From the IMG/VR virus record IMGVR_UViG_3300035670_000271, positions 1 through 54,492 of that record: 54,492 nt of DNA; one strand, written 5' to 3'. Positions 24,034-36,864 of the stretch are shown in pieces. The notes below the pieces were generated by a model. That model did no database searches, had not been told where the DNA came from, and worked only from the letters and a program-made list of their open reading frames with translations. This stretch comes from a virus (lineage: Duplodnaviria > Caudoviricetes). The translations under genes were made by a program, and so were the position numbers. How positions within the stretch are numbered: position 1 is the stretch's first letter; each line of letters opens with the position of its first letter.

Positions 24034-24284
24034 AAAATGCGCGGCGTGAAAAATTTCTTGTCTACGTCCAGCCTGGGCACTTAGAACGATGGGAAGAATT
24101 AGTGAAGCGATGCGGGGGGTTTTCCCCCGCCATGAATCATCTGTTGACACTTTACGAGATGATCCATTATTCACAAATTCCAGTCTATAAAGTCAACGAG
24201 CCGCAAACAGGGCAAACCGAAAGCGGGAATGAGGCGGCTGACATGGCAGTCAAGGTGGAAGAAACCGTTGAATGGAGGTTTTGA
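24030..24284 (+). CDS. ParR-like adaptor (putative centromere-binding protein)
   Basis: Small ORF coupled (ATGA) to ParM; basic N-terminus and acidic tail. Confidence 0.55.
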   Translation: MKNARREKFLVYVQPGHLERWEELVKRCGGFSPAMNHLLTLYEMIHYSQIPVYKVNEPQTGQTESGNEAADMAVKVEETVEWRF

Positions 24285-24285
24285 G

Positions 24286-25638
24286 ATGCAAAAAAATAAA
24301 AATATCGTCGTCTATGCGTTTTTAGCGGTCGCGATAACCATGATCGCCGCCTCGCTCTATCAAAAAGGTGAAATGTGGGTCAAACGGCAAGCCTTCGGCG
24401 ATGTCTTTGACGCGCAATTGGTCAGGGTGTCGGAAAAGGAGGCTGAACTCCGTGTCGCACAACTCGACATGGAGTTGGAGCGCATTGCATATAAGCGATC
24501 TCGGATAGGTGAGACGTCCGCCAAAATCCACAGTATCATTCTTATCCTGATTTGTGGCGGGTTTTTGGTCACGGGGTTGTATGCGACACCGATTTCGTTA
24601 GCTCACCTGCGGGCGAATTCTGTCATTGAACAGCATATCGGGTCATCTGTGTTGCGTATCCACTTCCAGACGGTCAAGAGTCCTGACTTTGCGCAGTTCA
24701 TGGGATTAGTCGCGCATATTGAAGGTGTGAGAGCGCAGAATCCTGAGAAGGCGCTTGAGATGTCATTGCAACTCACAAAAGCGATTACGGGCAGACTTGC
24801 CGCGTTGCCACATCCAGTCCAGTCAAGCTCATCTGCTGCGATGCCACAATTGACGCCCGTGCCGACGTTCCGCCAACTCTATGATGCCGGAAAAGTCGCG
24901 CCTGGTCAACCCCTCTGCATGGGTTTTTGTCAAGGGGAGCCGCAAAATAGAAGCATCAATGAAATCAGAAGCATGGCCGTCGCAGGAGCACAGGGCAGCG
25001 GAAAAACCCTGTCGATTGCGTACCTGATTACAAGCCTGTTGTCAATCGAAAAAGACTCGCAAGGTTTTGTGATCGATCCTCATCACAAGCATCATGAAGG
25101 GCTATGGTCGTACATCTCTCCATTGGAGCAGACTGGAAGGTTGACGCGGGTAGGAGAATTTGAATGCCGGGAGCGGATGGAATGGCTACAAGATCGGCTT
25201 GACGCTCGTCTTAATGACCAAGAGCCATCAACGTCTCTCATCTTTTTTGTTATTGACGAACTTCCCGCAATCGGCAAGATTGACATTTTTCAGCAATCAA
25301 TCTTACCCGTGCTTTCGCGTTGTGTCTCTGAAAGCCGAAAGGCAAGAATTCTCTTCATCGGCGCTGGGACACGCTGGCAGGCGTCTAATTTTGGCGGAGA
25401 CGCTTCAATTCGTCAGACTCTATCATCCCTATGGGTTCACAAGACTAAGCCGTCTCAAGCCGAATTTTTGCTTGAGGATTCGCAAGATCGGAAACTCGTT
25501 AAAGCATTGAAGTCGCCGGGGCAGGCACTCTTGGCAACCGCAAACAGTAGTGACCCAAGCATCGTGACAGTGCCGCTCATTACTAAAAGCGATATTCTCA
25601 CGGTAGCTCAGGCGTTACAACCAAAAGAGGGGTCATGA
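24286..25638 (+). CDS. FtsK/SpoIIIE/TraB-like membrane DNA translocase ATPase
   Basis: Two hydrophobic segments, GAQGSGKT Walker A, VIDP, FFVIDELP Walker B, ESRK. Confidence 0.8.
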   Translation: MQKNKNIVVYAFLAVAITMIAASLYQKGEMWVKRQAFGDVFDAQLVRVSEKEAELRVAQLDMELERIAYKRSRIGETSAKIHSIILILICGGFLVTGLYATPISLAHLRANSVIEQHIGSSVLRIHFQTVKSPDFAQFMGLVAHIEGVRAQNPEKALEMSLQLTKAITGRLAALPHPVQSSSSAAMPQLTPVPTFRQLYDAGKVAPGQPLCMGFCQGEPQNRSINEIRSMAVAGAQGSGKTLSIAYLITSLLSIEKDSQGFVIDPHHKHHEGLWSYISPLEQTGRLTRVGEFECRERMEWLQDRLDARLNDQEPSTSLIFFVIDELPAIGKIDIFQQSILPVLSRCVSESRKARILFIGAGTRWQASNFGGDASIRQTLSSLWVHKTKPSQAEFLLEDSQDRKLVKALKSPGQALLATANSSDPSIVTVPLITKSDILTVAQALQPKEGS

Positions 25639-25663: not shown

Positions 25664-25719
25664 GCATAACGACAGCTTCAGCGGCGAAGAGGGGTGAGCC
25701 ACTCAAGCTGTCGTTAATG
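25664..25719 (-). repeat. attC site (short, terminal)
   Basis: TAACGACAGCTT...AAGCTGTCGTTA stem directly after the last cassette ORF. Confidence 0.7.
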
Positions 25720-25720
25720 A

Positions 25721-25936
25721 TTATTCTTCCCCGCGCCCCTCTGCTATCGTATTATGTTGTCGAATCATTGCCTGTGCATATATTACCGCATGGGTATAAT
25801 CATTTCTTAACGCAATTGATATGCCTCCTAATGGTTGCCATCCTTCACGTATCTTTTGTTTTACATTTTGTTGTAATATTCTGGAAGAGTTCCATTCCTC
25901 AATATGATAATCAACAATATTCATCGTAATTTGCAC
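25721..25936 (-). CDS. Cassette gene: DUF1737-like protein
   Basis: L...V...I.EGWQPLGGISI...YAQAM. Confidence 0.7.
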   Translation of the reverse strand: MQITMNIVDYHIEEWNSSRILQQNVKQKIREGWQPLGGISIALRNDYTHAVIYAQAMIRQHNTIAEGRGEE

Positions 25937-25950
25937 CTATTATTAAATAT

Positions 25951-26032
25951 GCCTAACAAGCCGCATGAGCGGCGAAAACCGCCTGGACGCTGTTCATCTT
26001 GGTTAATAGTTCCCGGCGGTTTTCGTCCGCTC
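25951..26032 (-). repeat. Truncated attC (family A)
   Basis: GCCTAAC..gcatgagcggcgaaaaccgcc...ggcggttttcgtccgctc; right core missing. Confidence 0.75.
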
Positions 26033-26080
26033 TAAGGGAACTTGGTTCACCATATTCTATCACTTAAACTGTGAACGGAG

Positions 26081-26149
26081 GCATAACGCGCTGAGGCCGC
26101 GCCATGCCTCCGTTCACACAATGATTAGTCTTCGCGCCCCGTGTTAGCA
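26081..26149 (-). repeat. Damaged attC (family C)
   Basis: Matches the 31785 site internally; both arms partly lost; GTTAGCA core at 26143. Confidence 0.7.
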
Positions 26150-26397
26150 ATTTCAGCGCCAACCTGAAATGCCATATCACACGCCTCATCAGAAACATAA
26201 TCCAACTCAGAAAAACCGCTCAACGAATATCCTATAAGTTGCGCAAATTGTTCTCTGTCCTCTCGACAAAAAGGCATTCGCGCTATTTGATTCAAATCAA
26301 AAGGGCCGTCATTAAGCAAAAAACGTACAATTCTATTTTCAACAAATCTTAGAATTCCTTTCTCGTCGATTTCTATTGATTGTAAAGGGTGTCTCAT
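26125..26397 (-). CDS. Cassette gene: phage-type hypothetical protein
   Basis: RF.EN.IV..LL...DLN.IA...F..ED.EQFAQLIGYSLSGF.EL.YVSDE. Confidence 0.7.
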   Translation of the reverse strand: MRHPLQSIEIDEKGILRFVENRIVRFLLNDGPFDLNQIARMPFCREDREQFAQLIGYSLSGFSELDYVSDEACDMAFQVGAEIANTGRED

Positions 26398-26529
26398 TCT
26401 GTTCCTCCGTAATTAGAACTTTATCCCAATTCGCTCAGGCGTGTCTTGATACGCATTATTAAGAGCATTCTGGAAACTACCTCTTCCGATATTGACTTCG
26501 TATCCTTCTGATTGTCTCCTTTAAAATAT

Positions 26530-26627
26530 TGCTAACAACGTGCATGAGCGGCGAAAACCGCCTGTGTGCTGTTCATTATTGTGAATCTCGCCCGGCGGTT
26601 TTCGTCCGATCCATGCGATTGTTAGAA
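26530..26627 (-). repeat. attC site (family A)
   Basis: TGCTAAC...GTTAGAA imperfect palindrome with bulged bases. Confidence 0.9.
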
Positions 26628-27445
26628 CGCTCATCTCCCATACTAAAAAGATTCTGCTGCCGCGTGTCCTTCTCGATACGCTGACACGCTTTCTCAAAGA
26701 TTTCCGAGTCTTTCTCCATGCCGATCCATCGTCTGCCGGTTCTAAACGCGGCAACGGCTGTTGTCCCTGAGCCGATCACGTTGTCAAGCACCGTGTCGCC
26801 TTCATTCGTATAGGTTCTGATGAGATATTCAAACAGCGCAACCGGCTTCTGTGTTGAATGTATTGTTAACCCTGATTTTGTTGAGTTGAAAAAATCAGAC
26901 TCAGTTTTTACAGAAAATACTGAACGAGGGAGCCTTGATCCGTCTTTACTTCCTGACTCCTTTATTGGTGAAAATTCCCCATAGTTTCCATTCCGCTTTT
27001 GACGATATTTCTCATTCTTAAAGCTTGGTGTAGTCAACATGAATTTCTGTGGATGATACACGGGTAAACTCTTATAAAACACAAGGATATTTTCATGCCC
27101 TCGCAACGGCATCCTGTTTGAATTCAAAAATCCTGTCGCAATCGACTTCTCCCATACTAAATCGTACCGAAACAGCTTATGATTCGACACGACAAGAAAG
27201 CTGGTGAACGGTTCAGCCGCAGTCAATACAATCGCACCATTCTGTTTGATGATGCGCTCGTACTGTTCCCATAGTGGAGCAAACGGAATAACGACATCCC
27301 ACTTATTTTGAGTCGTGCCATACGGTAAGTCAGCAAGAATCATGTCGATGGAACTGTCAGGAATATCTTGCATTAATTCCAAACAGTCTCCTTCGTAAAT
27401 GATACCATGCTCAAAGTCTTGCTCTCTCACTGGCTGAGTCTCCAT
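26576..27445 (-). CDS. Cassette gene: N6A/N4C DNA methyltransferase (beta class)
   Basis: DLPYG, HSTQKPVAL, LDNVIGSGTT. Confidence 0.92.
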   Translation of the reverse strand: METQPVREQDFEHGIIYEGDCLELMQDIPDSSIDMILADLPYGTTQNKWDVVIPFAPLWEQYERIIKQNGAIVLTAAEPFTSFLVVSNHKLFRYDLVWEKSIATGFLNSNRMPLRGHENILVFYKSLPVYHPQKFMLTTPSFKNEKYRQKRNGNYGEFSPIKESGSKDGSRLPRSVFSVKTESDFFNSTKSGLTIHSTQKPVALFEYLIRTYTNEGDTVLDNVIGSGTTAVAAFRTGRRWIGMEKDSEIFEKACQRIEKDTRQQNLFSMGDERSNNRMDRTKTAGRDSQ

Positions 27446-27450
27446 TTGCG

Positions 27451-27549
27451 TTCTAACAACGCGCATGAGCGGCGAAAACCGCCCTGTGCACTGTTCATCT
27501 TGGTTAATAGTCCCCGGCGGTTTTCGTCCGATCCATGCGATTGTTAGCC
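27451..27549 (-). repeat. attC site (family A)
   Basis: TTCTAAC...GTTAGCC. Confidence 0.9.
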
Positions 27550-27753
27550 TTTTTCCATTATCTTGTCGATCAAAAACTTTACATCATTTTCATGGACATA
27601 CGAATCATCACGACACATGCTCCATGCGTAATCTTTCAACCCTAATTCCTCAACAGTGGGAATATCCCGTAAAACAAAAGCGGCTGTCGCTGGATCGTCC
27701 CGTGTCAGAAACTCTTGCGCCGTCGCAATAGCTTTTTTAGTATGCTCTGTCAT
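27544..27753 (-). CDS. Cassette gene: hypothetical protein
   Basis: RBS AAGGA; stop TAA lies inside the inverse core. Confidence 0.7.
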   Translation of the reverse strand: MTEHTKKAIATAQEFLTRDDPATAAFVLRDIPTVEELGLKDYAWSMCRDDSYVHENDVKFLIDKIMEKG

Positions 27754-27770
27754 TTCCTTCACCTTTAAGT

Positions 27771-27881
27771 GGCTAACGCTTGTTTTGCACCTGACCCAAA
27801 AGGGCGGGCGCAACACGCTTGAAAGTAAACCACTAATTTTTATGCCCGCCCTTTTGGGTCAGGTGCAAAACATTGTTCGCA
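27771..27881 (-). repeat. attC site
   Basis: GGCTAAC...GTTCGCA around a long stem tgttttgcacctgacccaaaagggcgggc. Confidence 0.85.
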
Positions 27882-28021
27882 GGCGTTTTGTGTATTCAAC
27901 ACGACTGCCGTGTTTTTGGTACTTCTGACACCCGCTAAGATGTCAGGTTGCCATCTCGGTTCGGTACGTTGACCGGTGCGTTACCTCACGAAAGCTCTAC
28001 ATGAGAGCAACACTTCACGCC

Positions 28022-28040
28022 TGCGAACGCATTGTTATGC
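28022..28040 (-). repeat. Collapsed attC (cores only)
   Basis: TGCGAAC-gcatt-GTTATGC; each core complements the far end of its neighbouring cassette. Confidence 0.6.
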
Positions 28041-28086
28041 AACTTGTTTATATTGTTAGACATACGAACACTATCCACAGGAGAAA

Positions 28087-28188
28087 GCATAACGACTGCG
28101 ATAACGCGCTGAAGACGCGCCTGCACAGACGCTCGTTCAATGTTAATCTTGCTGCGCGGCTTCAGTCGCGTTCATTGCTTTGTTAGCA
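28087..28188 (-). repeat. attC site (family C)
   Basis: GCATAAC...GTTAGCA. Confidence 0.88.
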
Positions 28189-28451
28189 ATCTGTTCATAT
28201 TTTAAACCATGTGCTCTATGCGCTGCATTTACTGTCTCAAGCGTCGTTTCACACCAATGAAACAAAGGATGATCTTGATTTTTGCACATCCAAGAATCCT
28301 GCAATAATTTTATTTGTTCTTCTATGCGCGATAGATAATCATGAATGCTCATTTTATTAACTCTATCATGAGAATCTGAATGGCAAAAATCAGAAAATCT
28401 TTGTTCTTCTGCGCCCCTATTATATCCGTGACCCCATTGTTTCTTGCCCAT
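28143..28451 (-). CDS. Cassette gene: hypothetical protein
   Basis: RBS AAGGA; the ORF reads through into attC. Confidence 0.65.
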   Translation of the reverse strand: MGKKQWGHGYNRGAEEQRFSDFCHSDSHDRVNKMSIHDYLSRIEEQIKLLQDSWMCKNQDHPLFHWCETTLETVNAAHRAHGLKYEQIANKAMNATEAAQQD

Positions 28452-28473
28452 ACATATCCTTTCGTTCTAAGAT

Positions 28474-28571
28474 TGCTAACAACGCGCATGAGCGGCGAAA
28501 ACCGCCTGGACGCTGTTCATTATTGGTAATCTCGCCCGACGGTTTTCGTCCGATCTATGCGATTGTTATTC
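28474..28571 (-). repeat. attC site (family A)
   Basis: TGCTAAC...GTTATTC. Confidence 0.9.
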
Positions 28572-28796
28572 GTCCTTATCAATACATTCAATTTCTACTT
28601 TGCCGTTTGATTTGATAATAAATACAAACCTTTTTGATTTAGCATTTTCATGCGTTAAATCAAAACGCTGGCGCAATTCAGCAGGGATTGTCATCTGCCA
28701 ATGCTCTGATGTTTTCCCCTGGCTGACTCTTATAGCAATAGGTTTTGATTTGATTTCAAATTGTGGACTCATGCCGGTATTTTGCCCCCAGGCCAA
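28566..28796 (-). CDS. Cassette gene: AbrB/MazE/SpoVT-type DNA-binding protein
   Basis: QMTIPAELRQRFDL...FII..GKVEI. Confidence 0.7.
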   Translation of the reverse strand: MAWGQNTGMSPQFEIKSKPIAIRVSQGKTSEHWQMTIPAELRQRFDLTHENAKSKRFVFIIKSNGKVEIECIDKDE

Positions 28797-28990
28797 AATT
28801 TACGATACTGTGATGCTTCGTAATCAGCTTGCCAGTATTCCTTTTGCGCTAATTCGTAACAATGCTTTAGCCCAGGAGATACCCTCCCGTGTTTTTTTGC
28901 GTCGTCTACCATTTCTTTATGCGCTTCCCGTCTTTTCTTGACGGCTTTATCCAAATCTTTTTTCACGTTACGCCATGCACGGTATCCCAT
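28769..28990 (-). CDS. Cassette gene: small basic protein paired with the AbrB-like gene
   Basis: First ORF downstream of the cassette-internal promoter. Confidence 0.6.
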   Translation of the reverse strand: MGYRAWRNVKKDLDKAVKKRREAHKEMVDDAKKHGRVSPGLKHCYELAQKEYWQADYEASQYRKFWPGGKIPA

Positions 28991-29053
28991 TATATTTCCC
29001 CCATTTCTTGTTTGAGTTCTTTCAACGTCTATACGTTCACTTAACTAATATAC

Positions 29054-29082
29054 AGTATAATATACCGACAGGTATTTGTCAA
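29054..29082 (-). promoter_or_regulatory. Cassette-internal promoter
   Basis: TTGACA-17-TATACT; the spacer holds the palindrome atacc-tgtc-ggtat. Confidence 0.8.
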
Positions 29083-29146
29083 GCGTTTATCAAAAATATT
29101 TACTCTCAGGTGTGATTTTTTCAATAAACGCTGCAAACAGGAAGAC

Positions 29147-29247
29147 GGATAACGAGCGCATAACCGGCTTTGGAGGGCGCGTGCTCACTTCACCACGAGG
29201 TGAAATTCCCCGCGCCCTCCAAAGTCCGGTTCATGCGTTTGTTATGA
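29147..29247 (-). repeat. attC site (family B)
   Basis: GGATAAC...GTTATGA; near-identical to 35734-35833. Confidence 0.9.
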
Positions 29248-29294
29248 CTTCGGTTTATTTTGCGATTGCTACAATACGATCTTTCTTGAATTTA

Positions 29295-29353
29295 CGCTCG
29301 CACCATGTTAGTGTTCCGGCGCGGTTTCAGTCGCGTTCATTGCAGTGTTATAT
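29295..29353 (-). repeat. Half attC (family C)
   Basis: gcgcggtttcagtcgcgttcattgcagtGTTATAT right arm only. Confidence 0.7.
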
Positions 29354-29559
29354 CACCCACCACCTGCCACAGCTTTTCCGAATGATTCTTTCACAGAATG
29401 GACAGATAATTCTCCCCAAATGCAAGGATCGTAAGTCATTTCTTTTTTGATGATTTCCTGCGCTTCTTCTAATGATTCAGCAATAGCGAACGCTAACCCA
29501 GAAGTATAGTCAGGAGAAAACCCTTCCCAAACATATAATTGTAATTTATTTTTTGCCAT
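29353..29559 (-). CDS. Cassette gene: phage-type hypothetical protein
   Basis: LYVWEG...DYTSGLAFAIAES.EEA; RBS GGAGG. Confidence 0.7.
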   Translation of the reverse strand: MAKNKLQLYVWEGFSPDYTSGLAFAIAESLEEAQEIIKKEMTYDPCIWGELSVHSVKESFGKAVAGGG

Positions 29560-29583
29560 GATTCCCTCCGCTCGTAGTTAGTG

Positions 29584-29686
29584 ATATAACGACTGGCATA
29601 ACCGGCAAAAGCCGCGCCAGTACTTGGTTTATAGACTATCCAAATTCGCCGCGCGGCTTTTGTCCGCGTTCATGCCTTTGTTAGGC
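29584..29686 (-). repeat. attC site (family D)
   Basis: ATATAAC...GTTAGGC. Confidence 0.9.
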
Positions 29687-29901
29687 TTCTGTTTCATTTT
29701 GACTGCTGCAATTTCTCGCTCACGCTTCGATTTCGGCATGTTGCGAAAAAAAAAGATCGCGCGTTCAAGATACAAAGGAACTGGCCGTTCTCCTGTCGTC
29801 ATGCGATAAATGACAGGGCGATGAGAGCCTAACAACAAGGCGGCCTGACGTGGATTTAGGCCATATTCCTCCAAGAATGTGTTGAGTTCGTCTTGTGTCA
29901 T
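29629..29901 (-). CDS. Cassette gene: HTH DNA-binding protein (Aca-like)
   Basis: MTQDELNTFLEEYGLNPRQAALLLGSHRPVIYRMTTGERPVP. Confidence 0.75.
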   Translation of the reverse strand: MTQDELNTFLEEYGLNPRQAALLLGSHRPVIYRMTTGERPVPLYLERAIFFFRNMPKSKREREIAAVKMKQKPNKGMNADKSRAANLDSL

Positions 29902-29929
29902 AGCATGAAAGGGGCTTTCGCCCCTCTGT

Positions 29930-30139
29930 TTAGATTTCTGAAAAATCTTGAGCATCAAAATTCAATTCGCCCATGTTCGTTTCTACTGTGTATGATACAG
30001 CGATAAAGTATCCTGGTTTATTTTTGTATATGGTCGGCTCTTCAATTTTTGTTTCGACTCTTTCCGCTGAATACACTTTGCCAGATTCTATTCCAAAAGA
30101 TTTGTTGAAATCGTTATTTGCTTTAACTTGAACTCTCAT
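29930..30139 (-). CDS. Cassette gene: small protein upstream of the HTH gene
   Basis: RBS AAGGAG and ATG 30139 downstream of an internal promoter. Confidence 0.7.
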   Translation of the reverse strand: MRVQVKANNDFNKSFGIESGKVYSAERVETKIEEPTIYKNKPGYFIAVSYTVETNMGELNFDAQDFSEI

Positions 30140-30195
30140 TTTTATTCTCCTTGTTGTTAGTGTTTTTGTTTTCCCTCTCATCAACTTACAAGTTT

Positions 30196-30224
30196 AATAT
30201 AGTACCAATGGTACTTTTTGTCAA
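30196..30224 (-). promoter_or_regulatory. Cassette-internal promoter with operator palindrome
   Basis: TTGACA-17-TATATT; the spacer contains AGTACCA-T-TGGTACT. Confidence 0.8.
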
Positions 30225-30333
30225 GCACTTTCTCACATTTTTTTGAATTATTTTATATAATTCCTGAAAATGCCTGATTCATAGGGAGCACAAGGAGAAA
30301 ATATTTTATCAAAGAACGCTGTTGATGGTAGAA

Positions 30334-30445
30334 GCCTAACGACAAGCTTCAGCAGCTTGGAAGGGCGGGCGGCAACCAAGCGTGAAGTAAAACAACAGAC
30401 TTTCTACGCCCGCCCTTCCAAGTCTGCTGCAAGCATTTGTTCGGG
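30334..30445 (-). repeat. attC site
   Basis: GCCTAAC...GTTCGGG; stem gcttcagcagcttggaagggcgggc with two bulges. Confidence 0.88.
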
Positions 30446-30591
30446 CTTCTTTCGTCTCATAACCACATCCTGCCATAAAAGAAAACTATTGGCTAAAATT
30501 ACCCCAAACCAAGCAATCCCTCTAAACAAACTGATTCCAATTATACTGATGATAATCGCAAAGATACGAATAGTCATCAGTGAACGATTGT

Positions 30592-31344
30592 TTAATATGG
30601 TCTCTTGCATGTTGGACATATCCCTTTTGTTGACGCTGTTGGTTTTGAACCAACATTGATCCCGAAATTTTCTTTGATTGGATGTGGGCCTAAATATACG
30701 CCTTGCGTAAACGACCCCGCACCATATAATAACTCAATAATCTCTTGCTTTTGTTGGTCTGATAATGTTTTAAACCAATCCTGTTCAAATGCAAGAAAAT
30801 TTCGATTGAGAACCTTACAAGATGCAGGAACTGTGCCACCACCTGTAAAGGGATCAAAAATAATTGCTTGCGTTGATGTCAGCCTGTCTATGTAATACAG
30901 ATACGGCCCCGCCTGTTTATGCCACTTATGATTTCCTGATAATAACGCCGGATTCCCATCAACAAAATAATCTCTTGTTGGCTTATTCACAGTAGGAATG
31001 CCCTTTCTAAATACAAGAATAGAGTGCCAACAAGAAAACATTTTCATTGCGCCAAAAATATTGAGTGCTGGACGATAGCAGGCTATTTGCCAAATAAATT
31101 CAATTGTTTCATTTTGAACAGCTTGAAGTGTTTCAAAGAGCCGTTTTTGTGCGTGCCATACTAAACAAGCTGAATTTGGCTTCAATATCCGCGCTGCTGT
31201 TTCTCCGAGCCATTTATAATCATCAACGTTTTCATAAATGGGATCAGTGAAAATCAGGTCAACCGATTCATCGGGAATGCCCTTTGACAATTCTCTGGCA
31301 TCGCCTGTATAGATTTGGTTGAGTTCGTATTCTCCGAGTTTCAC
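30592..31344 (-). CDS. Cassette gene: DNA methyltransferase, probably a chimera with an unrelated C-terminus
   Basis: DLIFTDPIY, HKWHKQ and DPFTGGGT, then unrelated sequence ending CPTC. Confidence 0.8.
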   Translation of the reverse strand: MKLGEYELNQIYTGDARELSKGIPDESVDLIFTDPIYENVDDYKWLGETAARILKPNSACLVWHAQKRLFETLQAVQNETIEFIWQIACYRPALNIFGAMKMFSCWHSILVFRKGIPTVNKPTRDYFVDGNPALLSGNHKWHKQAGPYLYYIDRLTSTQAIIFDPFTGGGTVPASCKVLNRNFLAFEQDWFKTLSDQQKQEIIELLYGAGSFTQGVYLGPHPIKENFGINVGSKPTASTKGICPTCKRPY

Positions 31345-31360
31345 TGTCTCACCTCAAGCA

Positions 31361-31459
31361 GCAGAACAACACGCATGAGCGGCGAAAACCGCCCTGTGCT
31401 CTGCTTATTATTGTTAATAGTCCCCGGCGGTTTTCGTCCGCTCGATGCGATTGTTAGAC
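31361..31459 (-). repeat. attC site (family A)
   Basis: GCAGAAC...GTTAGAC. Confidence 0.9.
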
Positions 31460-31762
31460 ATGATTAATTGCTACCTGCGTTAATTTAGCAATTACCCAAA
31501 CACGTAAGTCTGACAAATCTTTATTCACCTCAGCGGCACACTCAAGCCAGCGTTCTCCCGCCATCACATCGAACAGAATATGTCCCTTATAATCGCCATG
31601 CGTGTATTCTATATTTTTTACAGACATATCCAAAAATTGAGCGCAAGCATTGACTTCTTTCTGTACGGATTCTTGTCTTGCAATCTGCGATTGCAATGCT
31701 TGTGGATCATCATACTTCCCCCTTGCTAATCCTGCTATGTCGGAAAACTTTGATAATTTCAT
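31454..31762 (-). CDS. Cassette gene: hypothetical protein
   Basis: Fills the cassette; stop in the inverse core. Confidence 0.7.
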   Translation of the reverse strand: MKLSKFSDIAGLARGKYDDPQALQSQIARQESVQKEVNACAQFLDMSVKNIEYTHGDYKGHILFDVMAGERWLECAAEVNKDLSDLRVWVIAKLTQVAINHV

Positions 31763-31784
31763 TTCTTACCACTCCTGTGAGTAT

Positions 31785-31885
31785 TGCTAACGACTGGCAT
31801 AACGCGCTGAGGCCGCGCAATGCTGCCGTTCACACAATGTTAATCTTCGCGCGCGGCCTCAGTCGCGTTCATGCCTTCGTTAGAC
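31785..31885 (-). repeat. attC site (family C)
   Basis: TGCTAAC...GTTAGAC. Confidence 0.9.
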
Positions 31886-32126
31886 ATCCTCCCTGTTATC
31901 CTTTGAGCCTCTTTCAACGCTCCCTCTCTCACGATCTTTGATTCTTCAATCCCTGAAACCTCAACAGCCAATTCAATTATATGCCGTTCCTCTTCCGAGA
32001 AACGATAGACCTTACGAATAGTTCGGCGTTTTTCTTCTGGCTTCTCGGCGTTTTTGTATGTGCCAGGGCGGAGTCCCTGGTTTCGATTATCTTCTCGATT
32101 ATCTCTTTGAATTCTAAATCATCCAT
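31840..32126 (-). pseudogene. Frameshifted DUF1778-like RHH antitoxin/regulator cassette gene
   Basis: Adding one C near 32003 gives VRSIRFSEEERHIIELAVEVSGIEESKIVREGALKEAQRI. Confidence 0.6.
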
Positions 32127-32152
32127 ATCTTTTGTTTGTATTACAGAGCGGT

Positions 32153-32263
32153 TTCTAACGATCGCAAATCACCGGCGACAAAGGGCGGGCGGGAAAAGCC
32201 TGTAATACAGCAACCAAGTTTTAGGCCCGCCCTTTGGCGTCCGGTGCATTTGCATTGTTATGC
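32153..32263 (-). repeat. attC site
   Basis: TTCTAAC...GTTATGC. Confidence 0.88.
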
Positions 32264-32452
32264 TGCGTCTATTGTCTTTTCAACTAACTGACGCAGCCAC
32301 TTTTGATACGACTTAAACCCGGCCACTTTTGCCGCCTGAATGATGTGCTTTTTCAATTCCGGCTCACACCTGAAAGACACTTGCACATCTTTTGTGCCGT
32401 CTTTAGTGGAGCCGGTTGGTCTCCCGGCTCCTTCTCGTTTCCCGCCTCGCAT
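32258..32452 (-). CDS. Cassette gene: RHH-type DNA-binding protein
   Basis: RGGKREGAGRP, then VSFRCEPELK...AA...G...WLR. Confidence 0.75.
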   Translation of the reverse strand: MRGGKREGAGRPTGSTKDGTKDVQVSFRCEPELKKHIIQAAKVAGFKSYQKWLRQLVEKTIDAA

Positions 32453-32733
32453 TAGTATGCCTCGTATCCTTCAATTTCCCAATCCAGTTGATCCAACTCC
32501 TCAACCTTATCGAGAGCATCCTGCATCTGGTAGTAATAGGCTACAAGGGTGCGTCGTTCGCCTTCTGCGTCCGTGTAGTTTATGGATGCCGTAAACTCAA
32601 CAGATTGATCGCCGTCCGTCTGTACCCGCCCGCTAAAATCGCAATTCTCACGATCTAATGCTTCAACAACTTCTTTACTAGCTTCTACGATTGCCTGATC
32701 TCTCGTTAATTTACCGTGTCTCATGTGTTTCAC
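32452..32733 (-). CDS. Cassette gene: small acidic protein (anti-defence candidate)
   Basis: D/E-rich 93 aa, TAATG-coupled to the RHH gene, own promoter TTGACA-16-TATATT at 32782-32809. Confidence 0.7.
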   Translation of the reverse strand: MKHMRHGKLTRDQAIVEASKEVVEALDRENCDFSGRVQTDGDQSVEFTASINYTDAEGERRTLVAYYYQMQDALDKVEELDQLDWEIEGYEAY

Positions 32734-32907
32734 CTCGTTTGCTTGACGTTTTTAAAATTTCCATTTACTGAGTATAGTCTTAATATAAGCATTATAGAAT
32801 TTTTGTCAAGCAAATAATCTAAATATTTACACAAACAAGACGATTTTTTGAGGTCAAAACCTGAGAACGCCTGATCTTGTAGGCAAGAACTTTTTACGAG
32901 TGAAGCA

Positions 32908-33014
32908 GCATAACGACGCGCATAACCCGCCAAAAGCCGCGCGCCGAATTGTTTCACGAACACCGGCCACGCTCTCCGCGCGGGTTTTGGTCGGGGTTCA
33001 TGCGATTGTTATGC
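32908..33014 (-). repeat. attC site
   Basis: GCATAAC...GTTATGC. Confidence 0.9.
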
Positions 33015-33203
33015 CGCACATTTCCAAATTTTAACATTCCCCTGATTACTTGCCTTCCAGTAAGCATGCTTTTCTGCCCATCGCATTAGGCGAACAAGGC
33101 TAAATCTTGACACCCCATAATATTTACGATAATGCCACCCGATACACACAAGGTTTTTCACTCCTGGAAGATTATCATATATTGCGATACCTGTCTTCTT
33201 CAT
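33009..33203 (-). CDS. Cassette gene: small basic hypothetical protein
   Basis: RBS AGGGGAG, ATG 33203, stop in the inverse core. Confidence 0.65.
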   Translation of the reverse strand: MKKTGIAIYDNLPGVKNLVCIGWHYRKYYGVSRFSLVRLMRWAEKHAYWKASNQGNVKIWKCAA

Positions 33204-33233
33204 TTCTCCCCTTTGCCGCTTACTTTTTAAGCG

Positions 33234-33374
33234 GCATAACGCTTGGCTTGAGGTGCTTGGGGGACGCCCTTCAGCGGAGCAACCAAGCCCGAACCCCCTC
33301 TGAACGATATGGCGGACAACCTCTGCTGAAATCACCGCGCGTCCCCCAAGTCACCCTCCAAGCCTTTGTTCGCG
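33234..33374 (-). repeat. attC site (long, 141 bp)
   Basis: GCATAAC..ggcttgaggtgcttgggggacgc...gcgtcccccaagtcaccctccaagcc..GTTCGCG. Confidence 0.85.
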
Positions 33375-33385
33375 ATGCTCTCTCG

Positions 33386-34960
33386 TTATAACAATTGTTG
33401 TTGCGTACTTTCTTGAATATGCTTGCCAGCCGTTTTAAAGACGCCATGCGTCGTCATGGGCATTTTGACCTGTTCACCATCCAATAGCTGTTCAATCGTC
33501 AGAAGTTGAATCGTCGGAAACTGTGTCGCATAGACGCCAAGCTGCTCACCATGCGGAGAATAAAAGCCTTCCTGCTTGGCTTCTCGAATCATGGGCGTCG
33601 TCACCTGTTCCTGAAAACACACAAACACTCCAATTGCGGCTTTTTGAGACTTCACGACGTGAATAAACTCTCTCAGGTTCTTGACATTCACCTTGCCGCT
33701 TTTGACTTCGATCAGCACGGTTTCTTTCTTCTTGCCCATCGCAAAGGTCATGTGCCCATCCCATCCGCCATCTGCGGTTTTCTTGGGATTACTGACACCT
33801 GACAACACAAATTCAATGACCCAATCCTGAAATTTAAACCGACCATTGTCGTCACTTTCCGCTAAAGCTTTGGCTGAGGCGATGTCTTTTGGAATGCCAA
33901 ACACTTCAAAGGTGTGACGAATTTCAGCATATTTTGTGTCATACGTCTCCTGAAGGCGTTTCATGACCAGTTTGATTGAGAGATGTGAAATGTCAACGCC
34001 TAACCATCGGCGGCCTAATTTTTGGGCGACAGCGATGGTTGTCCCGCATCCACAGCAAAAGTCAGCCACCAGATCGCCTTCGTTGCTGCTCGTTTTGAGA
34101 ATACGTTCAAGTAGTTCTTCTGGTTTTTGGGTCGGATACCCTAAACGCTCTTTTGCCATTGGATTGATATGAAAAATATCATTCCATAAATTATTCATAG
34201 GAACGCCTTTCAGGGTATTGATGTATTGCTTATATTCTGGCTTTCCTGATTTTGTCCACCGCAACATATCTTGTGATTCAAGGTCGTGTAACTTTTCATC
34301 AGAATATGTTTTCATCGCTTGCCAACGATATTTCCCTTTTACGTCTTGATACTTGAACCGTTTGAGATAAGTTTCTCCATATTCTCGATACAGCTTATTA
34401 AAGGTAAATTGTTCAGTCTTTGTATAAAATAAAATCGTATCAGTATCGGCACTGAATCGTTTTGAGAGAGATTTGCTACTCCCAGTGTTTGTCGTTCTTT
34501 GCCAAATAATTTCATTTTGAAAATATCGTTCACTAAAAATCATATCACAGGCTATCTTCAAATAATGGCTCATTGTTGGGTCACAGTGCAAATAAAAGCT
34601 TCCAGTGTCTTTCAGTACCTTGTACATATACCATATTCTGAGAGCCATCGTACAGAGATACGATATAGCTGCCTTTGGGAGTGACGTATTATCAAGCACA
34701 TTCAGCACGTTATACAGGTCAAGATCAATCTCATGAATCTCGTTCAATGTGTCGAGATAGGACACTTGACTCCATGTATCGGCAAACGCTTCTTTTTGGG
34801 CTTTGGTGTCTTGCAAGTCCACATCTTCAAACAAAATGTTATAGTTCCGTTTTGAGTTAAACGGAGGGTCAATATAAATCAGATCAATAAAGCCGTTTGG
34901 ATGCGCGGCATACAGTTGTTTGAGTATATCGAGATTATCACCAAAATATAATGCATTCAC
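33386..34960 (-). CDS. Cassette gene: DNA methyltransferase fused to a Mrr-like PD-(D/E)xK domain
   Basis: IYIDPPF, YPTQKPE, DFCCGCGTT; C-terminal DGGWDG...IEVKSG. Confidence 0.9.
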   Translation of the reverse strand: MNALYFGDNLDILKQLYAAHPNGFIDLIYIDPPFNSKRNYNILFEDVDLQDTKAQKEAFADTWSQVSYLDTLNEIHEIDLDLYNVLNVLDNTSLPKAAISYLCTMALRIWYMYKVLKDTGSFYLHCDPTMSHYLKIACDMIFSERYFQNEIIWQRTTNTGSSKSLSKRFSADTDTILFYTKTEQFTFNKLYREYGETYLKRFKYQDVKGKYRWQAMKTYSDEKLHDLESQDMLRWTKSGKPEYKQYINTLKGVPMNNLWNDIFHINPMAKERLGYPTQKPEELLERILKTSSNEGDLVADFCCGCGTTIAVAQKLGRRWLGVDISHLSIKLVMKRLQETYDTKYAEIRHTFEVFGIPKDIASAKALAESDDNGRFKFQDWVIEFVLSGVSNPKKTADGGWDGHMTFAMGKKKETVLIEVKSGKVNVKNLREFIHVVKSQKAAIGVFVCFQEQVTTPMIREAKQEGFYSPHGEQLGVYATQFPTIQLLTIEQLLDGEQVKMPMTTHGVFKTAGKHIQESTQQQLL

Positions 34961-35017
34961 ACCTGGCGTTCATCTTTCGTATAGCCTCATATACGCTTAG
35001 TTAAGAGACTATACCAA

Positions 35018-35119
35018 AGCGAACGACTGGCATAACCGGCAACAGCCGCGCCTTCCAGCCGCTTGCACTATGTTAATGTTTCGGCGCGGCTGTTGTCCGC
35101 GTTCATGCCTTTGTTAGCA
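35018..35119 (-). repeat. attC site (family D)
   Basis: AGCGAAC...GTTAGCA. Confidence 0.9.
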
Positions 35120-35136
35120 ATCTGATTTTTATTTAC

Positions 35137-35337
35137 TTGACATATCATAATATACTTACTATCTTTATCTTGATGATAGTTGAGCATAGCGACTTTTTAT
35201 CAAGTCCGCCGTGACTGCTCAGGAAATTAACTCTAATACAAGGATGAAACAAGTTCATTTCGTATAGCGTTATACGTTGCTTTCCAGACTACATCAAAGC
35301 GAACGCCGCCCCAGGTCTAAGCAGCCTGGGGCTTTTC
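35137..35337 (+). ncRNA. Candidate cassette-encoded small RNA (promoter to terminator)
   Basis: TTGACA-17-TATCTT at 35137-35165; no convincing ORF; terminator gccccagg...cctggggctttt at 35308-35336. Confidence 0.5.
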
Positions 35338-35709
35338 ATTATAACATGATAAGCATCCATCTCGTTTATCACACTCCGTCACATCACACGAAGAATTTAC
35401 CATATCATCCTGCATACGTCGCCGTTCTTCATCTGGCAATACATTCCATGCGTATTCTGCATGGTTTAGACAATATTTGCCTCCACAAACCTGCTCAGGC
35501 TCTTCTCCGTGATATTTACGGATAGTATTGACAGATTGAACGCTGATGTAAAGACTGTATCTTGAGTCTGCCTCATCAGTATTTTGAATCTGAATTGTCT
35601 GGTCATGCGGAGTGACAACCTGCACAATTTGAATAATTTCTCCATCGCCATATTCTTCTACTTCTTCTGTATGAATGTTTTTAAAATGAACCCAATCACC
35701 TATTTTCAT
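35317..35709 (-). CDS. Cassette gene: hypothetical protein, Cys-rich C-terminus
   Basis: MKIGDWV N-terminus; several Cys pairs. Confidence 0.7.
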   Translation of the reverse strand: MKIGDWVHFKNIHTEEVEEYGDGEIIQIVQVVTPHDQTIQIQNTDEADSRYSLYISVQSVNTIRKYHGEEPEQVCGGKYCLNHAEYAWNVLPDEERRRMQDDMVNSSCDVTECDKRDGCLSCYNEKPQAA

Positions 35710-35733
35710 ATCTCAATGCCACTCCCATAAGAT

Positions 35734-35833
35734 TGCTAACGAGCGCATAACCGGCTTTGGAGGGCGCGTACTCACTTCCCACGAGGCAAAAGTTCCCGCG
35801 CCCTCCAAAGTCCGGTTCATGCGGTTGTTATGC
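35734..35833 (-). repeat. attC site (family B), first cassette
   Basis: TGCTAAC...GTTATGC. Confidence 0.9.
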
Positions 35834-36034
35834 AGATTTGTCTCCATGAATCGGGAAATTCCATTCACGACATTTCCCATACGCTTCTTTCGCTGCTTTA
35901 TCATCGTTGCCTTTAATGCCAAGTCCGATTTTATCACGACAACTAACTCCACACCATCCAGTTAAATGCGGCTTTACGTGTTGATTACAATATACCCATT
36001 GATTCTCACCAAATACTTTTGCATCTTCTTCCAT
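35828..36034 (-). CDS. First-position cassette gene: small Cys/His hypothetical protein
   Basis: WVYC.QH..PH.TGWC; RBS GAGGAG; stop in the inverse core. Confidence 0.7.
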   Translation of the reverse strand: MEEDAKVFGENQWVYCNQHVKPHLTGWCGVSCRDKIGLGIKGNDDKAAKEAYGKCREWNFPIHGDKSA

Positions 36035-36058
36035 GTCTTTCTCCTCTCTTCATGAACG

Positions 36059-36121
36059 GCATAACAATTATTATATTGACAAATTCTATATCTAATATTA
36101 TATTAATACACAGAAAGTCAA
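36059..36121 (-). promoter_or_regulatory. attI-like site overlapping the integrase promoter
   Basis: Lone G/TTATGC core at 36065 with no hairpin; plus-strand TTGACA-17-TATATT at 36076-36104. Confidence 0.7.
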
Positions 36122-36132
36122 GGAGAAAATAC

Positions 36133-36864
36133 ATGAAAACAAAAAAATATGACGAATATCTACTCTATCTCTATAGTTTTTCACAACTTAGCAAACAAAC
36201 AATCTGTGCGTATCTCTCATGGTCAGCAAAGCTCTGTCTCTGGGTTGGGGTCGCGCATCCGTTGGACGTGCCGCCGGGAAAAATTGACGAATTTCGCCTC
36301 TATCTACTTAACGAGAAAAAATTCTCATGGAAGAGCGATACGGTTGTGTTTAACGCTTTGAAGCACACCTACTCGACGCTCTTGAAACATGTTGAACCAG
36401 AAGAGGCCAAGAAATATGCGAATATCTTCCGCACGTCACCACGACAGCCTAACACCCTGCCGCGCTATGTGACACAGGAGAGCATGGCCGCCTTTTGCGC
36501 GGCGCTTCCTGCGACGATTGCAGGCAATCTCTTGCGATCAAGCTATCAGACGGGAAAAACGGTAGATATGATTTTGGCCAAGGCGGAAAAGCCCTGGAAA
36601 GTCTCGCAGAGATACCTGCAACAAGTTTGTCTAAAGACCGCGCTGAAAGTCGGTATGCCGAAAGGGTTCGGCGTGACCGGAGTCAGGGGTGCTGGCATCT
36701 TACACAGAATCCAAAACCGACAGACGGATTTAGAATTGACAGCCATTCGTGAGGATTCCGGCCTGTCACATGCGCAGTTTCTCTTGTATTGTCGAGCGGC
36801 AGGTGTGACCGGGTTATCTGGGAATGCAACCAGACAACGCCACCGCAAGAAGAAGCAAGCATAA
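36133..36864 (+). CDS. intI: Integron-integrase (IntI)-derived protein, internally deleted and probably catalytically inactive
   Basis: S.QT..AY..W......GV.HP......I.EF..YL.NE.K.S, PR..NTLP..T and Y.TG align with IntI1; box I R and box II H residues replaced. Confidence 0.8.
   Translation: MKTKKYDEYLLYLYSFSQLSKQTICAYLSWSAKLCLWVGVAHPLDVPPGKIDEFRLYLLNEKKFSWKSDTVVFNALKHTYSTLLKHVEPEEAKKYANIFRTSPRQPNTLPRYVTQESMAAFCAALPATIAGNLLRSSYQTGKTVDMILAKAEKPWKVSQRYLQQVCLKTALKVGMPKGFGVTGVRGAGILHRIQNRQTDLELTAIREDSGLSHAQFLLYCRAAGVTGLSGNATRQRHRKKKQA

Follow-up and report, generated by a model that had tools for sequence, protein, structure and literature searches.

Complementary cassette ends point to an integron-type array in the genome of a tailed phage

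The DNA analysed here (the window) is the whole of IMG/VR virus record IMGVR_UViG_3300035670_000271 (Duplodnaviria; Caudoviricetes), 54,492 bases carrying terminal repeats and with an estimated completeness of 100%. Between positions 25,664 and 36,065 lies a row of attC-like hairpins and small genes on the minus strand; at its right end are a putative attI-like core and a divergent gene for a 243-aa protein related to the integron integrase IntI. The row occupies 10.4 kb, or 19% of the genome, and its units measure 65–1,784 bp. We take it to be an integron-type cassette array in a complete tailed phage, with its units inserted by an IntI-type recombinase, a reading to which we give a probability of roughly four in five. 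The observation that carries it is that the two ends of a cassette are complementary to each other. The elements of the array are as follows, with positions counted in the window and bit scores taken from the covariance model described below.

25664..36065, minus strand: whole cassette array, 19–20 cassettes, from c1 (beside the attI-like core) to c20
36133..36864, plus strand: IntI-like gene, 243 aa, divergent; N-terminal SAM-like integrase domain and a C-terminal half modelled as shrunken and all-helical
36059..36132, minus strand: putative attI-like region; core G/TTATGC at 36065–36059, the other 67 nt reaching to the start codon of the IntI-like gene
35734..35833, minus strand: attC s18 (c1), 79.8 bits; extrahelical bases at 16 and 23
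35018..35119, minus strand: attC s17 (c2), 90.3 bits; extrahelical bases at 16, 20 and 24
33234..33374, minus strand: attC s16 (c3), the longest at 141 nt; not used in training, 34.8 bits, E 7.9e-6; extrahelical bases at 17, 21 and 24
32908..33014, minus strand: attC s15 (c4), 76.7 bits
32153..32263, minus strand: attC s14 (c5), 71.7 bits
31785..31885, minus strand: attC s13 (c6), 97.1 bits
31361..31459, minus strand: attC s12 (c7), type A, 86.6 bits
30334..30445, minus strand: attC s11 (c8), 69.8 bits
29584..29686, minus strand: attC s10 (c9), 94.9 bits
29317..29353, minus strand: s9, remnant of a type-B attC; only the plus-strand 3' half and the GTT core (29347) are left
29147..29247, minus strand: attC s8 (c11), 79.6 bits; 92% identical to s18
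28474..28571, minus strand: attC s7 (c12), type A, 83.2 bits
28087..28188, minus strand: attC s6 (c13), 85.5 bits
28022..28040, minus strand: s5b, mini-site with AAC and GTT 5 nt apart; bounds the 65-bp cassette c14, which has no open reading frame (ORF)
27771..27881, minus strand: attC-like s5 (c15), 57.1 bits; perfect 29-bp stem, no extrahelical bases; ORF-less cassette
27451..27549, minus strand: attC s4 (c16), type A, 88.8 bits
26530..26627, minus strand: attC s3 (c17), type A, 84.2 bits
26070..26149, minus strand: s2 (c18), degenerate type-B attC; plus-strand 3' arm partly missing; 15.2 bits, E 0.33
25951..26051, minus strand: attC s1 (c19), decayed type A; not used in training, 48.9 bits, E 3.6e-9
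25664..25719, minus strand: s0 (c20), short attC-like hairpin of 56 nt that closes the array; weak, about 14.6 bits, E about 0.45

The 21 sites (20 attC-like sites and the attI-like core) were located over 25,664–36,065 by reading and by their inverted repeats. The curation was by eye; for s2 the left core was placed at 26076 and not at 26087, a choice that shifts the adjoining junction between 6 and 3 nt. The coordinates were checked later against the covariance model. An automatic caller that took all AAC...GTT pairs by folding energy merged flanking hairpins and called coding regions, and the curated coordinates were used instead.

The original prediction, made from the sequence alone, held that the cores flanking one cassette pair with each other better than the two cores of one attC do, and gave ten pairs of words as examples. 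All 10 are exact reverse complements at the positions given; in one of them (27875/28018) the run is 12 nt long and not, as given, 11. That list comprised the best junctions only, and here all 19 junctions with both cores were scored, the score being the perfect run outward from GTT/AAC when the sequence to the right of one GTT is set against the reverse complement of that to the left of the next AAC. Runs of 4 nt (two junctions), 5 (two), 6 (three), 7 (three), 9 (one), 10 (four), 11 (three) and 12 nt (one) were found, with a mean of 7.95 nt and a median of 7. The two cores of the same site give a mean run of only 3.95 (maximum 7; n = 19), which confirms the comparison made in the prediction, and all other pairings of a right core with a left core give 4.22 (n = 362). 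None of 100,000 permutations matched either the observed mean or the count of nine junctions with runs of at least 9 nt, so pairing within a cassette is better than random pairing of the cores. The same holds for the 12 junctions that lie between sites placed by the covariance model (16 sites) with no degenerate site in between: the mean run is 8.0, as against 4.06 within a site (n = 16) and 4.26 for other pairings (n = 228), and again none of 100,000 permutations reaches the mean. At positions 8–12, beyond the 7-nt consensus, 3.08 of 5 bases match at junctions, compared with 1.75 and 1.93 in the two controls.

The check proposed with the prediction, to circularise each cassette in silico and fold it, also came out in its favour. 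With its own cassette 5' end attached, the site was more stable than in situ in 14 of 17 cases (mean difference −4.3 kcal/mol), and the true flank was the best of 20 candidate flanks in nine of the 17. The attI-like core takes part in the pattern, pairing over 7 nt with the inverse core (R'') of the attC of the first cassette at 35827. Even the remnant s9 retains it: its core at 29347 still pairs over 10 nt with 29581–29590.

By the accepted definition, a cassette starts at the first T of one R' and ends with the G of the R' that follows, and an attC site is whole only in the circular form (PMC2674596); the bases at the 5' end of a cassette are therefore expected to be complementary to the inverse core of its own attC. 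The complementarity itself is thus textbook integron chemistry, and its value here is as proof that these units are real cassettes and not look-alike repeats. In mechanistic terms, each unit would be a former circular cassette inserted by an IntI-type tyrosine recombinase. Such an enzyme would bind the folded bottom strand of attC (here the plus strand), cut at the A/C step of AAC in the R' core, as described for the bottom strand (PMC5027507), and exchange strands with attI or another attC. Insertion would split the cassette's own R', leaving the G at its 3' end and TT with the following bases at its 5' start, and because of this split the two ends would remain complementary. Each attC in the array would then be a hybrid in which its own R'' stands beside the R' tail of the next cassette, the true partner of that R'' lying a gene's length off, at the opposite end of its cassette.

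Assembly from circular cassettes at G/TT by an IntI-type enzyme, as the prediction had it, is supported by the junction statistics and by the structural tests of the attC sites that follow. Its further wording, that the ends record real excision and integration, holds for insertion by core-site recombination; excision is not something that the footprint shows. The footprint shows core-site insertion, and not when, where or by whose integrase it took place.

The sites themselves are canonical attC hairpins and agree with attC in each structural test applied. The consensus hairpin of the 14 well-formed sites has 26 pairs, with 95.9% of its cells paired; the figure is 76.3% in shuffles (0 of 500 reach 95.9%) and 37–42% when partners are slid. 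Changes on both sides of a pair, that is, compensatory changes, were found in 15 of the 26 stem pairs. Single-base bulges occur at 16/17 and 23/24 in 13 of the 16 model-placed sites, all on the plus-strand 3' arm, and three of the 13 have a third bulge at 20/21; only one of the 16 sites has a bulge on the 5' arm. Plus-strand folds show a short R-box helix followed by an asymmetric unpaired spacer; among 18 minimum-free-energy folds, nine have it as a 2x1 loop at stem position 9 and four more have variants at 8–10. The layout of extrahelical bases is that of attCaadA7, attCoxa2 and VCR2, for which extrahelical G16, A or T20 and T23–24, an unpaired central spacer and a variable terminal structure are described and in which the bulges mark the recombinogenic bottom strand (PMC5027507). 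Since the extrahelical bases lie on one arm of the plus-strand folds, plus is identified as the bottom strand and minus as the top, or coding, strand. This call agrees with the minus-strand ORFs of the cassettes and with the opposite direction of the gene at the right end.

Site lengths range from 56 to 141 nt (98–141 nt for the 16 model-placed sites, 56 nt for s0). AAC and GTT bound all 16 model-placed sites and s0, and the wider consensus RYYYAAC/GTTRRRY is loosely kept. Site interiors are heterogeneous, with a median pairwise identity of 62.6%; 14 of 120 site pairs reach 75% identity, and at least five sequence types are present. The interiors of the five type-A sites are 76–90% identical, and their left flanks diverge from the fourth core base outward, which is the look of hybrid sites made by a crossover in the core.

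A covariance model (R1) was built on the plus strand from 14 of the sites. It recovered two sites on which it had not been trained (s1, E 3.6e-9; s16, E 7.9e-6) and, weakly, s2 and s0. All of its matches in the 54,492 bases fall within 25,664–35,833, and none lies outside the array. In 82,266 bases of other loci it gave only two matches (E 6.9e-6 and 5.3e-4), both on the bottom strand, where the integron of Vibrio phage Va_90-11-286_p16 has its cassettes, and this locus served as a positive control on accepted attC sites. Rfam at gathering thresholds gave no match in the window, a result that is uninformative on attC.

Two neighbouring sites, s5 and s5b, look like atypical or collapsed sites. 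Both junctions adjoining s5b keep their complementarity (runs of 12 and 7), and between 27771 and 28040 the ends of the s5 cassette show the array's longest complementarity, with a perfect run of 12 nt and 84% over 19 nt.

The replicon that carries the array is a complete, circularly closing tailed-phage genome of 54.5 kb. An exact direct repeat of 127 nt stands at its termini (1–127 = 54366–54492), and an independent run contig of 44,617 bp leads from 35,740 through the end of the window to its start and on to 25,991, spanning both edges of the array. On account of this repeat and this contig the genome is seen to be closed, whether as a circle, as a concatemer or by circular permutation. Of ten large ORFs, seven have PHROGs matches to structural or packaging families (tape measure, large terminase, portal, major head protein, protease, tail protein and virion protein).

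Four public runs of one study (X1–X4) were compared with the window, in X3 and X4 over their covered parts. Depth is equal for pieces of the array and for the backbone in two runs, and in a third sample contigs cross both array-backbone junctions with zero differences. Independent run contigs end at the repeated attC sites; in the cassettes checked, both complementary ends lie within a single contig, and the complementarity is therefore independent of the order in which an assembler placed the repeats. Within the array the run contigs show no joints, indels or letter differences; rare circles or rearrangements are invisible to contigs, and the result neither supports nor refutes ongoing cassette traffic. 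A single contig of run X2 fits the window from 27454 (the TAAC of s4) onward and has a different sequence before it, which hints at a near-identical type-A attC beside another cassette in the same community. In runs X1 and X2, contigs fit the backbone only from 22815 and 25253 on, with other sequence before, suggesting that these samples contain variants of the phage with a mosaic structure immediately to the left of the array.

The lineage is poorly sampled. Its nearest portal proteins are 36–41% identical, and a portal profile led to two contigs (4.1 and 4.8 kb; 41% identity), in which model R1 found no attC match. Viral contigs yielded no close relatives by way of the IntI-like protein, both flanking proteins or the large terminase, and no relatives were found among 50,697 cultured phage records, where capsid matches were all below 60% identity and the best among the matches listed were 25–28%. 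A 20-nt word of the type-A attC had four single matches in species genomes (about the number expected by chance), none of them in an attC-like context by model R1; in viral contigs neither this word nor a 21-nt type-E word had any match.

The protein encoded beside the attI-like core scores 32.2 bits against PF13495, the N-terminal SAM-like integrase domain. A HMMER search of 1.84 billion representative sequences returned 11 relatives at E ≤ 0.001, eight of them at E ≤ 1e-10; identity is 31–46%, the aligned members are 219–264 aa long, and the alignment contains invariant residues. The relatives are on contigs of at most 5 kb, and none was found in cultured phages. Given a family of similar length, its invariant residues and a confident fold, the gene does not qualify as a fresh pseudogene. 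In sequence, the integron integrases stand nearest to the family: the best solved relative of its profile is IntI4 (2a3v; E 1.5e-9, over the N-terminal domain), and the best plasmid-borne tblastn match is a protein annotated as an integron integrase (weak, E 2e-3). In hhalign the protein aligns only to residues 17–139 of the IntIA of the Vibrio phage.

An alignment-based structure model (pLDDT, the predicted local distance difference test, 84.4), which replaced a single-sequence prediction (pLDDT 39), is all-helical, without beta-strands. It matches IntI4 (2a3v) with a Z score of 12.5 over 216 aligned residues; the C-terminal half matches integrase catalytic domains at Z 9.1–10.0 and a root-mean-square deviation of 2.3–3.5 Å over 111–112 residues, with residues 108–226 aligning at 2.3–2.6 Å. 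Structural neighbours in the Atlas are tyrosine recombinases of about 300 aa (template-modelling score 0.71–0.74 over 211–220 residues). On this model the protein has a shrunken two-domain tyrosine-recombinase fold.

The catalytic residues are another matter. The first catalytic Arg of Vibrio IntIA corresponds in hhalign to K142, a position held by K, C, H or Q across the family, and the all-helical model lacks the beta-hairpin on which the catalytic Lys sits. The H of H-x-x-R is T182; the invariant R185 aligns with the Arg of this motif in IntI4, and Tyr219, near the C-terminus, is kept in eight of nine family members, these C-terminal assignments being weak alignments. Only about 18 residues stand in the place of the IntI-specific domain of about 100. 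The full set R, D/E, K, H, R, H/W, Y is not found in the protein, which judging from sequence and model is less probably a catalyst than a remnant or regulator that binds DNA.

Several points weigh against the reading of the locus as an array filled by IntI-type insertion. The genome encodes no integrase able to insert cassettes, and the agent is one that we infer: the 243-aa protein reaches 21.9 bits against TIGR02249, where the cut-off is 265, the match covering profile positions 13–116 of 315, and in six frames of the whole genome nothing matches PF00589 or PF00239 at E ≤ 1. It is not a bona fide IntI. Runs are only 4–6 nt long at seven of the 19 junctions, and three sites (s0, s2 and s11) are less stable circularised than in situ. 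Because AAC and GTT are invariant, the crossover is located no more closely than to the triplet or the bases beside it, and not exactly at G/TT. With s5 devoid of extrahelical bases, an interior of 5 nt in s5b, and s9 and s2 truncated, a number of sites are degenerate or atypical, and some of the array is accordingly in decay or arose through other events. The run contigs, blind as they are to rare forms, hold no joints of excision or rearrangement, and with no close phage relative found, turnover of cassettes between genomes is not observable.

That the pairing arose without recombination at all is scarcely credible. The GTTRRRY/RYYYAAC consensus does help chance along, as the shared GTT/AAC and a frequent A at position 4 give runs of 3–5 nt in any pairing, but the mean is beyond all 100,000 permutations, the excess at positions 8–12 (3.08 of 5 against 1.75–1.93) lies outside the consensus, and the paired words add in-register pairs to the attC stem and make the fold more stable. 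Terminal inverted repeats of small transposon-like units are equally disfavoured, no transposase being present and the elements in between being canonical attC hairpins. The 243-aa protein itself is an improbable agent as a minimal recombinase running the array without the IntI-specific domain. It sits in the place and divergent orientation of an intI gene beside the attI-like core, matches IntI4 over its whole length (Z 12.5) and the integrases of HP1, P2 and S. aureus with its C-terminal half (Z 9–10), and keeps Y219 in eight of nine relatives and the invariant R185, weakly aligned with the Arg of H-x-x-R in IntI4. Against this stand the lack of any PF00589 match at E ≤ 1, a Lys in the place of the first catalytic Arg at a position that varies in the family (K, C, H, Q), an all-helical model with no counterpart of the catalytic-Lys hairpin, and about 18 residues where IntI has about 100, too few for the IntI-specific domain; in MrpR/YopR, moreover, the Tyr is described as kept and the activity as lost, the protein acting as a repressor (PMC10516654).

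The assembly of the array could also have taken place elsewhere. An array put together by IntI, and a piece of the integrase gene with it, might have been captured en bloc from a bacterial chromosome or plasmid by illegitimate recombination and be carried as a frozen passenger; this concerns the place of assembly only and does not dispute the core-site footprint, and we hold it to be a tentative possibility. Vibrio anguillarum phages with fragments of the host chromosomal integron are a precedent (PMC9892861), the phage studied here has no IntI or other recombinase domain, its cargo is foreign yet fairly uniform (G+C content 0.35–0.44 in 18 of 19 cassettes), and the attI-distal sites s0–s2 are decayed. 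A captured piece of integrase gene is difficult to match, however, with a gene that is no fresh pseudogene (a family of 219–264 aa, eight matches at E ≤ 1e-10, a confident fold); the attC sites are heterogeneous (median 62.6%, at least five types), unlike the homogeneous sites of sedentary chromosomal integrons; there is no lysogeny integrase to give imprecise excision; and three DNA methyltransferases in the cargo, one of a type common in cultured phages, fit selection in a phage. Because the phage lacks an active-looking IntI, it is most likely that the cassettes were integrated by a bacterial (host) IntI, either in trans on the phage DNA or before they entered the phage, and as to the enzyme, the time and the place of assembly this is as far as we infer. 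A stronger proposal, which we consider unlikely, is that the phage keeps a live integron platform, composed of the attI-like site, some 20 attC cassettes and a non-catalytic IntI-derived protein, that would be loaded by host IntI and would stock counter-defence and addiction genes. If so, the family of 220–260-aa IntI-like proteins would serve cassette traffic on phage DNA as a dedicated partner or regulator without catalysis of its own, and the three methyltransferases and three toxin–antitoxin (TA)-like operons would be exchangeable cassettes of the phage.

Clusters of attC sites lacking integron integrases (CALINs) have been reported from phages. In the survey of Qi et al. 2023, 10,705 phage genomes yielded three complete integrons, one In0 and 17 CALINs (PMC9892861); the CALINs had a minimum of two attC sites each, those described having two or three, five methyltransferases were among the cargo, and phage attC sites were recombined by IntI1 (PMC9892861). 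With 16 model-placed and four degenerate sites within 10.4 kb and no IntI, the array examined here is a CALIN by composition, and it is an unusually large example of the kind of cluster described in that report. It shares with those clusters attC-bounded cassettes in a phage without a neighbouring IntI, recurrent methyltransferase cargo and TA-like double-ORF cassettes with their own promoter (PMC9892861). It differs from the described clusters of two or three sites in having about 20, over 10.4 kb and 19% of the genome (PMC9892861), and also in its attI-like end and divergent IntI-derived gene; the phage, furthermore, is uncultured.

Likenesses to classical integrons are the divergent integrase-like gene, the core at the start of the array, the co-oriented and mostly promoterless cassettes, the R and L boxes, unpaired spacer, extrahelical bases at 16, 20 and 23–24 and variable loop of the sites, the sizes of the cassettes, the hybrid sites and the presence of some TA-like cassettes with promoters of their own. 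Unlike them, the array has no IntI beside it (21.9 against 265 bits for TIGR02249, no PF00589) and its replicon is a tailed phage. The heterogeneity of its attC sites is that of mobile integrons and its length that of a small chromosomal integron; it does not class with the sedentary chromosomal integrons, the replicon being a phage and the attC sites dissimilar. Vibrio phage Va_90-11-286_p16 (MK672802) likewise bears an array, in which model R1 detects two sites on the bottom strand. That phage is described as having an intact IntIA of 320 aa and sites of the homogeneous Vibrio type that it took from the superintegron of its host (PMC9892861), and the phage studied here has neither.

For the 243-aa protein, the nearest parallels in kind are MrpR/YopR of SPbeta and SroF of phi3T, DNA-binding repressors with a recombinase fold (structural matches at Z 7–8.5), of which MrpR is described as having lost its recombinase function (PMC10516654). 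These proteins are about 320 aa long, keep their beta-strands and do not stand beside attC arrays; ours, in contrast, has 243 aa, is all-helical in the model and is by profile closest to the integron integrases.

Integron cassettes are now seen as bacterial stores of anti-phage defence genes. Here a complete phage genome contains such a device, as large as a small chromosomal integron. The methyltransferases in its cassettes could protect the phage DNA from restriction. If phages load cassettes by means of host integrases, integrons would be a gene market shared by both sides of the phage–host conflict, and phages would carry cassettes from one bacterium to another. In addition, the IntI-like family, conserved and catalytically reduced, is a lead on the re-use of integrase-derived proteins.

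The cargo is compositionally foreign to the backbone. Its G+C content is 0.41, compared with 0.489, and its tetranucleotide distance is 0.293, compared with 0.134 ± 0.015 among equally sized pieces of backbone (maximum 0.164). The cargo genes for which a family or an architecture could be recognised are as follows.

33386..34960, minus strand: c3, DNA methyltransferase, 524 aa; N6_N4_Mtase 148.4 bits, C-terminal Mrr_cat-like domain 28 bits
30592..31344, minus strand: c8, divergent DNA methyltransferase, 250 aa; N6_N4_Mtase 26.3 bits (cut-off 26.7), CcrM-type E 1.3e-10
26627..27445, minus strand: c17, N6/N4 DNA methyltransferase, 273 aa, 100.9 bits; frame continues into attC s3
32258..32809, minus strand: c5, two-gene operon; 90 aa, then 64 aa, ribbon-helix-helix (RHH)/NikA-like (20.7 bits, below cut-off); promoter-like site 32809–32782, 11/12
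29629..30224, minus strand: c9, two-gene operon; no family match; promoter-like site 30224–30196, 11/12
28566..29082, minus strand: c12, two-gene operon; 73 aa, then 68 aa, weakly AbrB-like; promoter-like site 29082–29054, 11/12

The c17 methyltransferase gene is 67–73% identical at the nucleotide level to methylase genes of cultured phages. The C-terminal domain of the 524-aa protein of c3 also matches an 'inactive restriction endonuclease' model (26.5 bits); by sequence the protein could combine modification and restriction in one chain, or be a methylase whose nuclease domain is dead. The likeness of the three two-gene cassettes to TA systems is one of architecture only: no family of toxins or antitoxins scored above its cut-off in c5, c9 or c12, the AbrB domain of the 68-aa protein of c12 reaching 18 bits, below the cut-off. 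The other cassettes carry small ORFs without known function, and four are ORF-less or hold only a remnant. Searched against PHROGs, 20 proteins of the array and its flanks matched only two families, both of unknown function. The gene to the left of the array (24229–25638) encodes 469 aa with weak P-loop matches to HerA/FtsK, both below cut-offs; its neighbours of 410 and 555 aa gave no family match.

Promoter-like sites are not in excess in the region (26 found, 22.5 ± 6.0 expected). The four best match the consensus at 11 of 12 positions, with TTGACA, a spacer of 16–17 nt, and TATATT or TATACT; they precede the IntI-like gene (36076–36104, plus strand) and the three two-gene cassettes. A minus-strand site directed toward the array, in the position of a Pc promoter (36121–36094), matches at only nine of 12. 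In c2, about 200 nt of non-coding sequence separate the ORF from the attC (35113–35332); this segment contains a GC-rich, terminator-like hairpin at 35308–35332 and a plus-strand promoter-like site at 35137–35165 (10/12).

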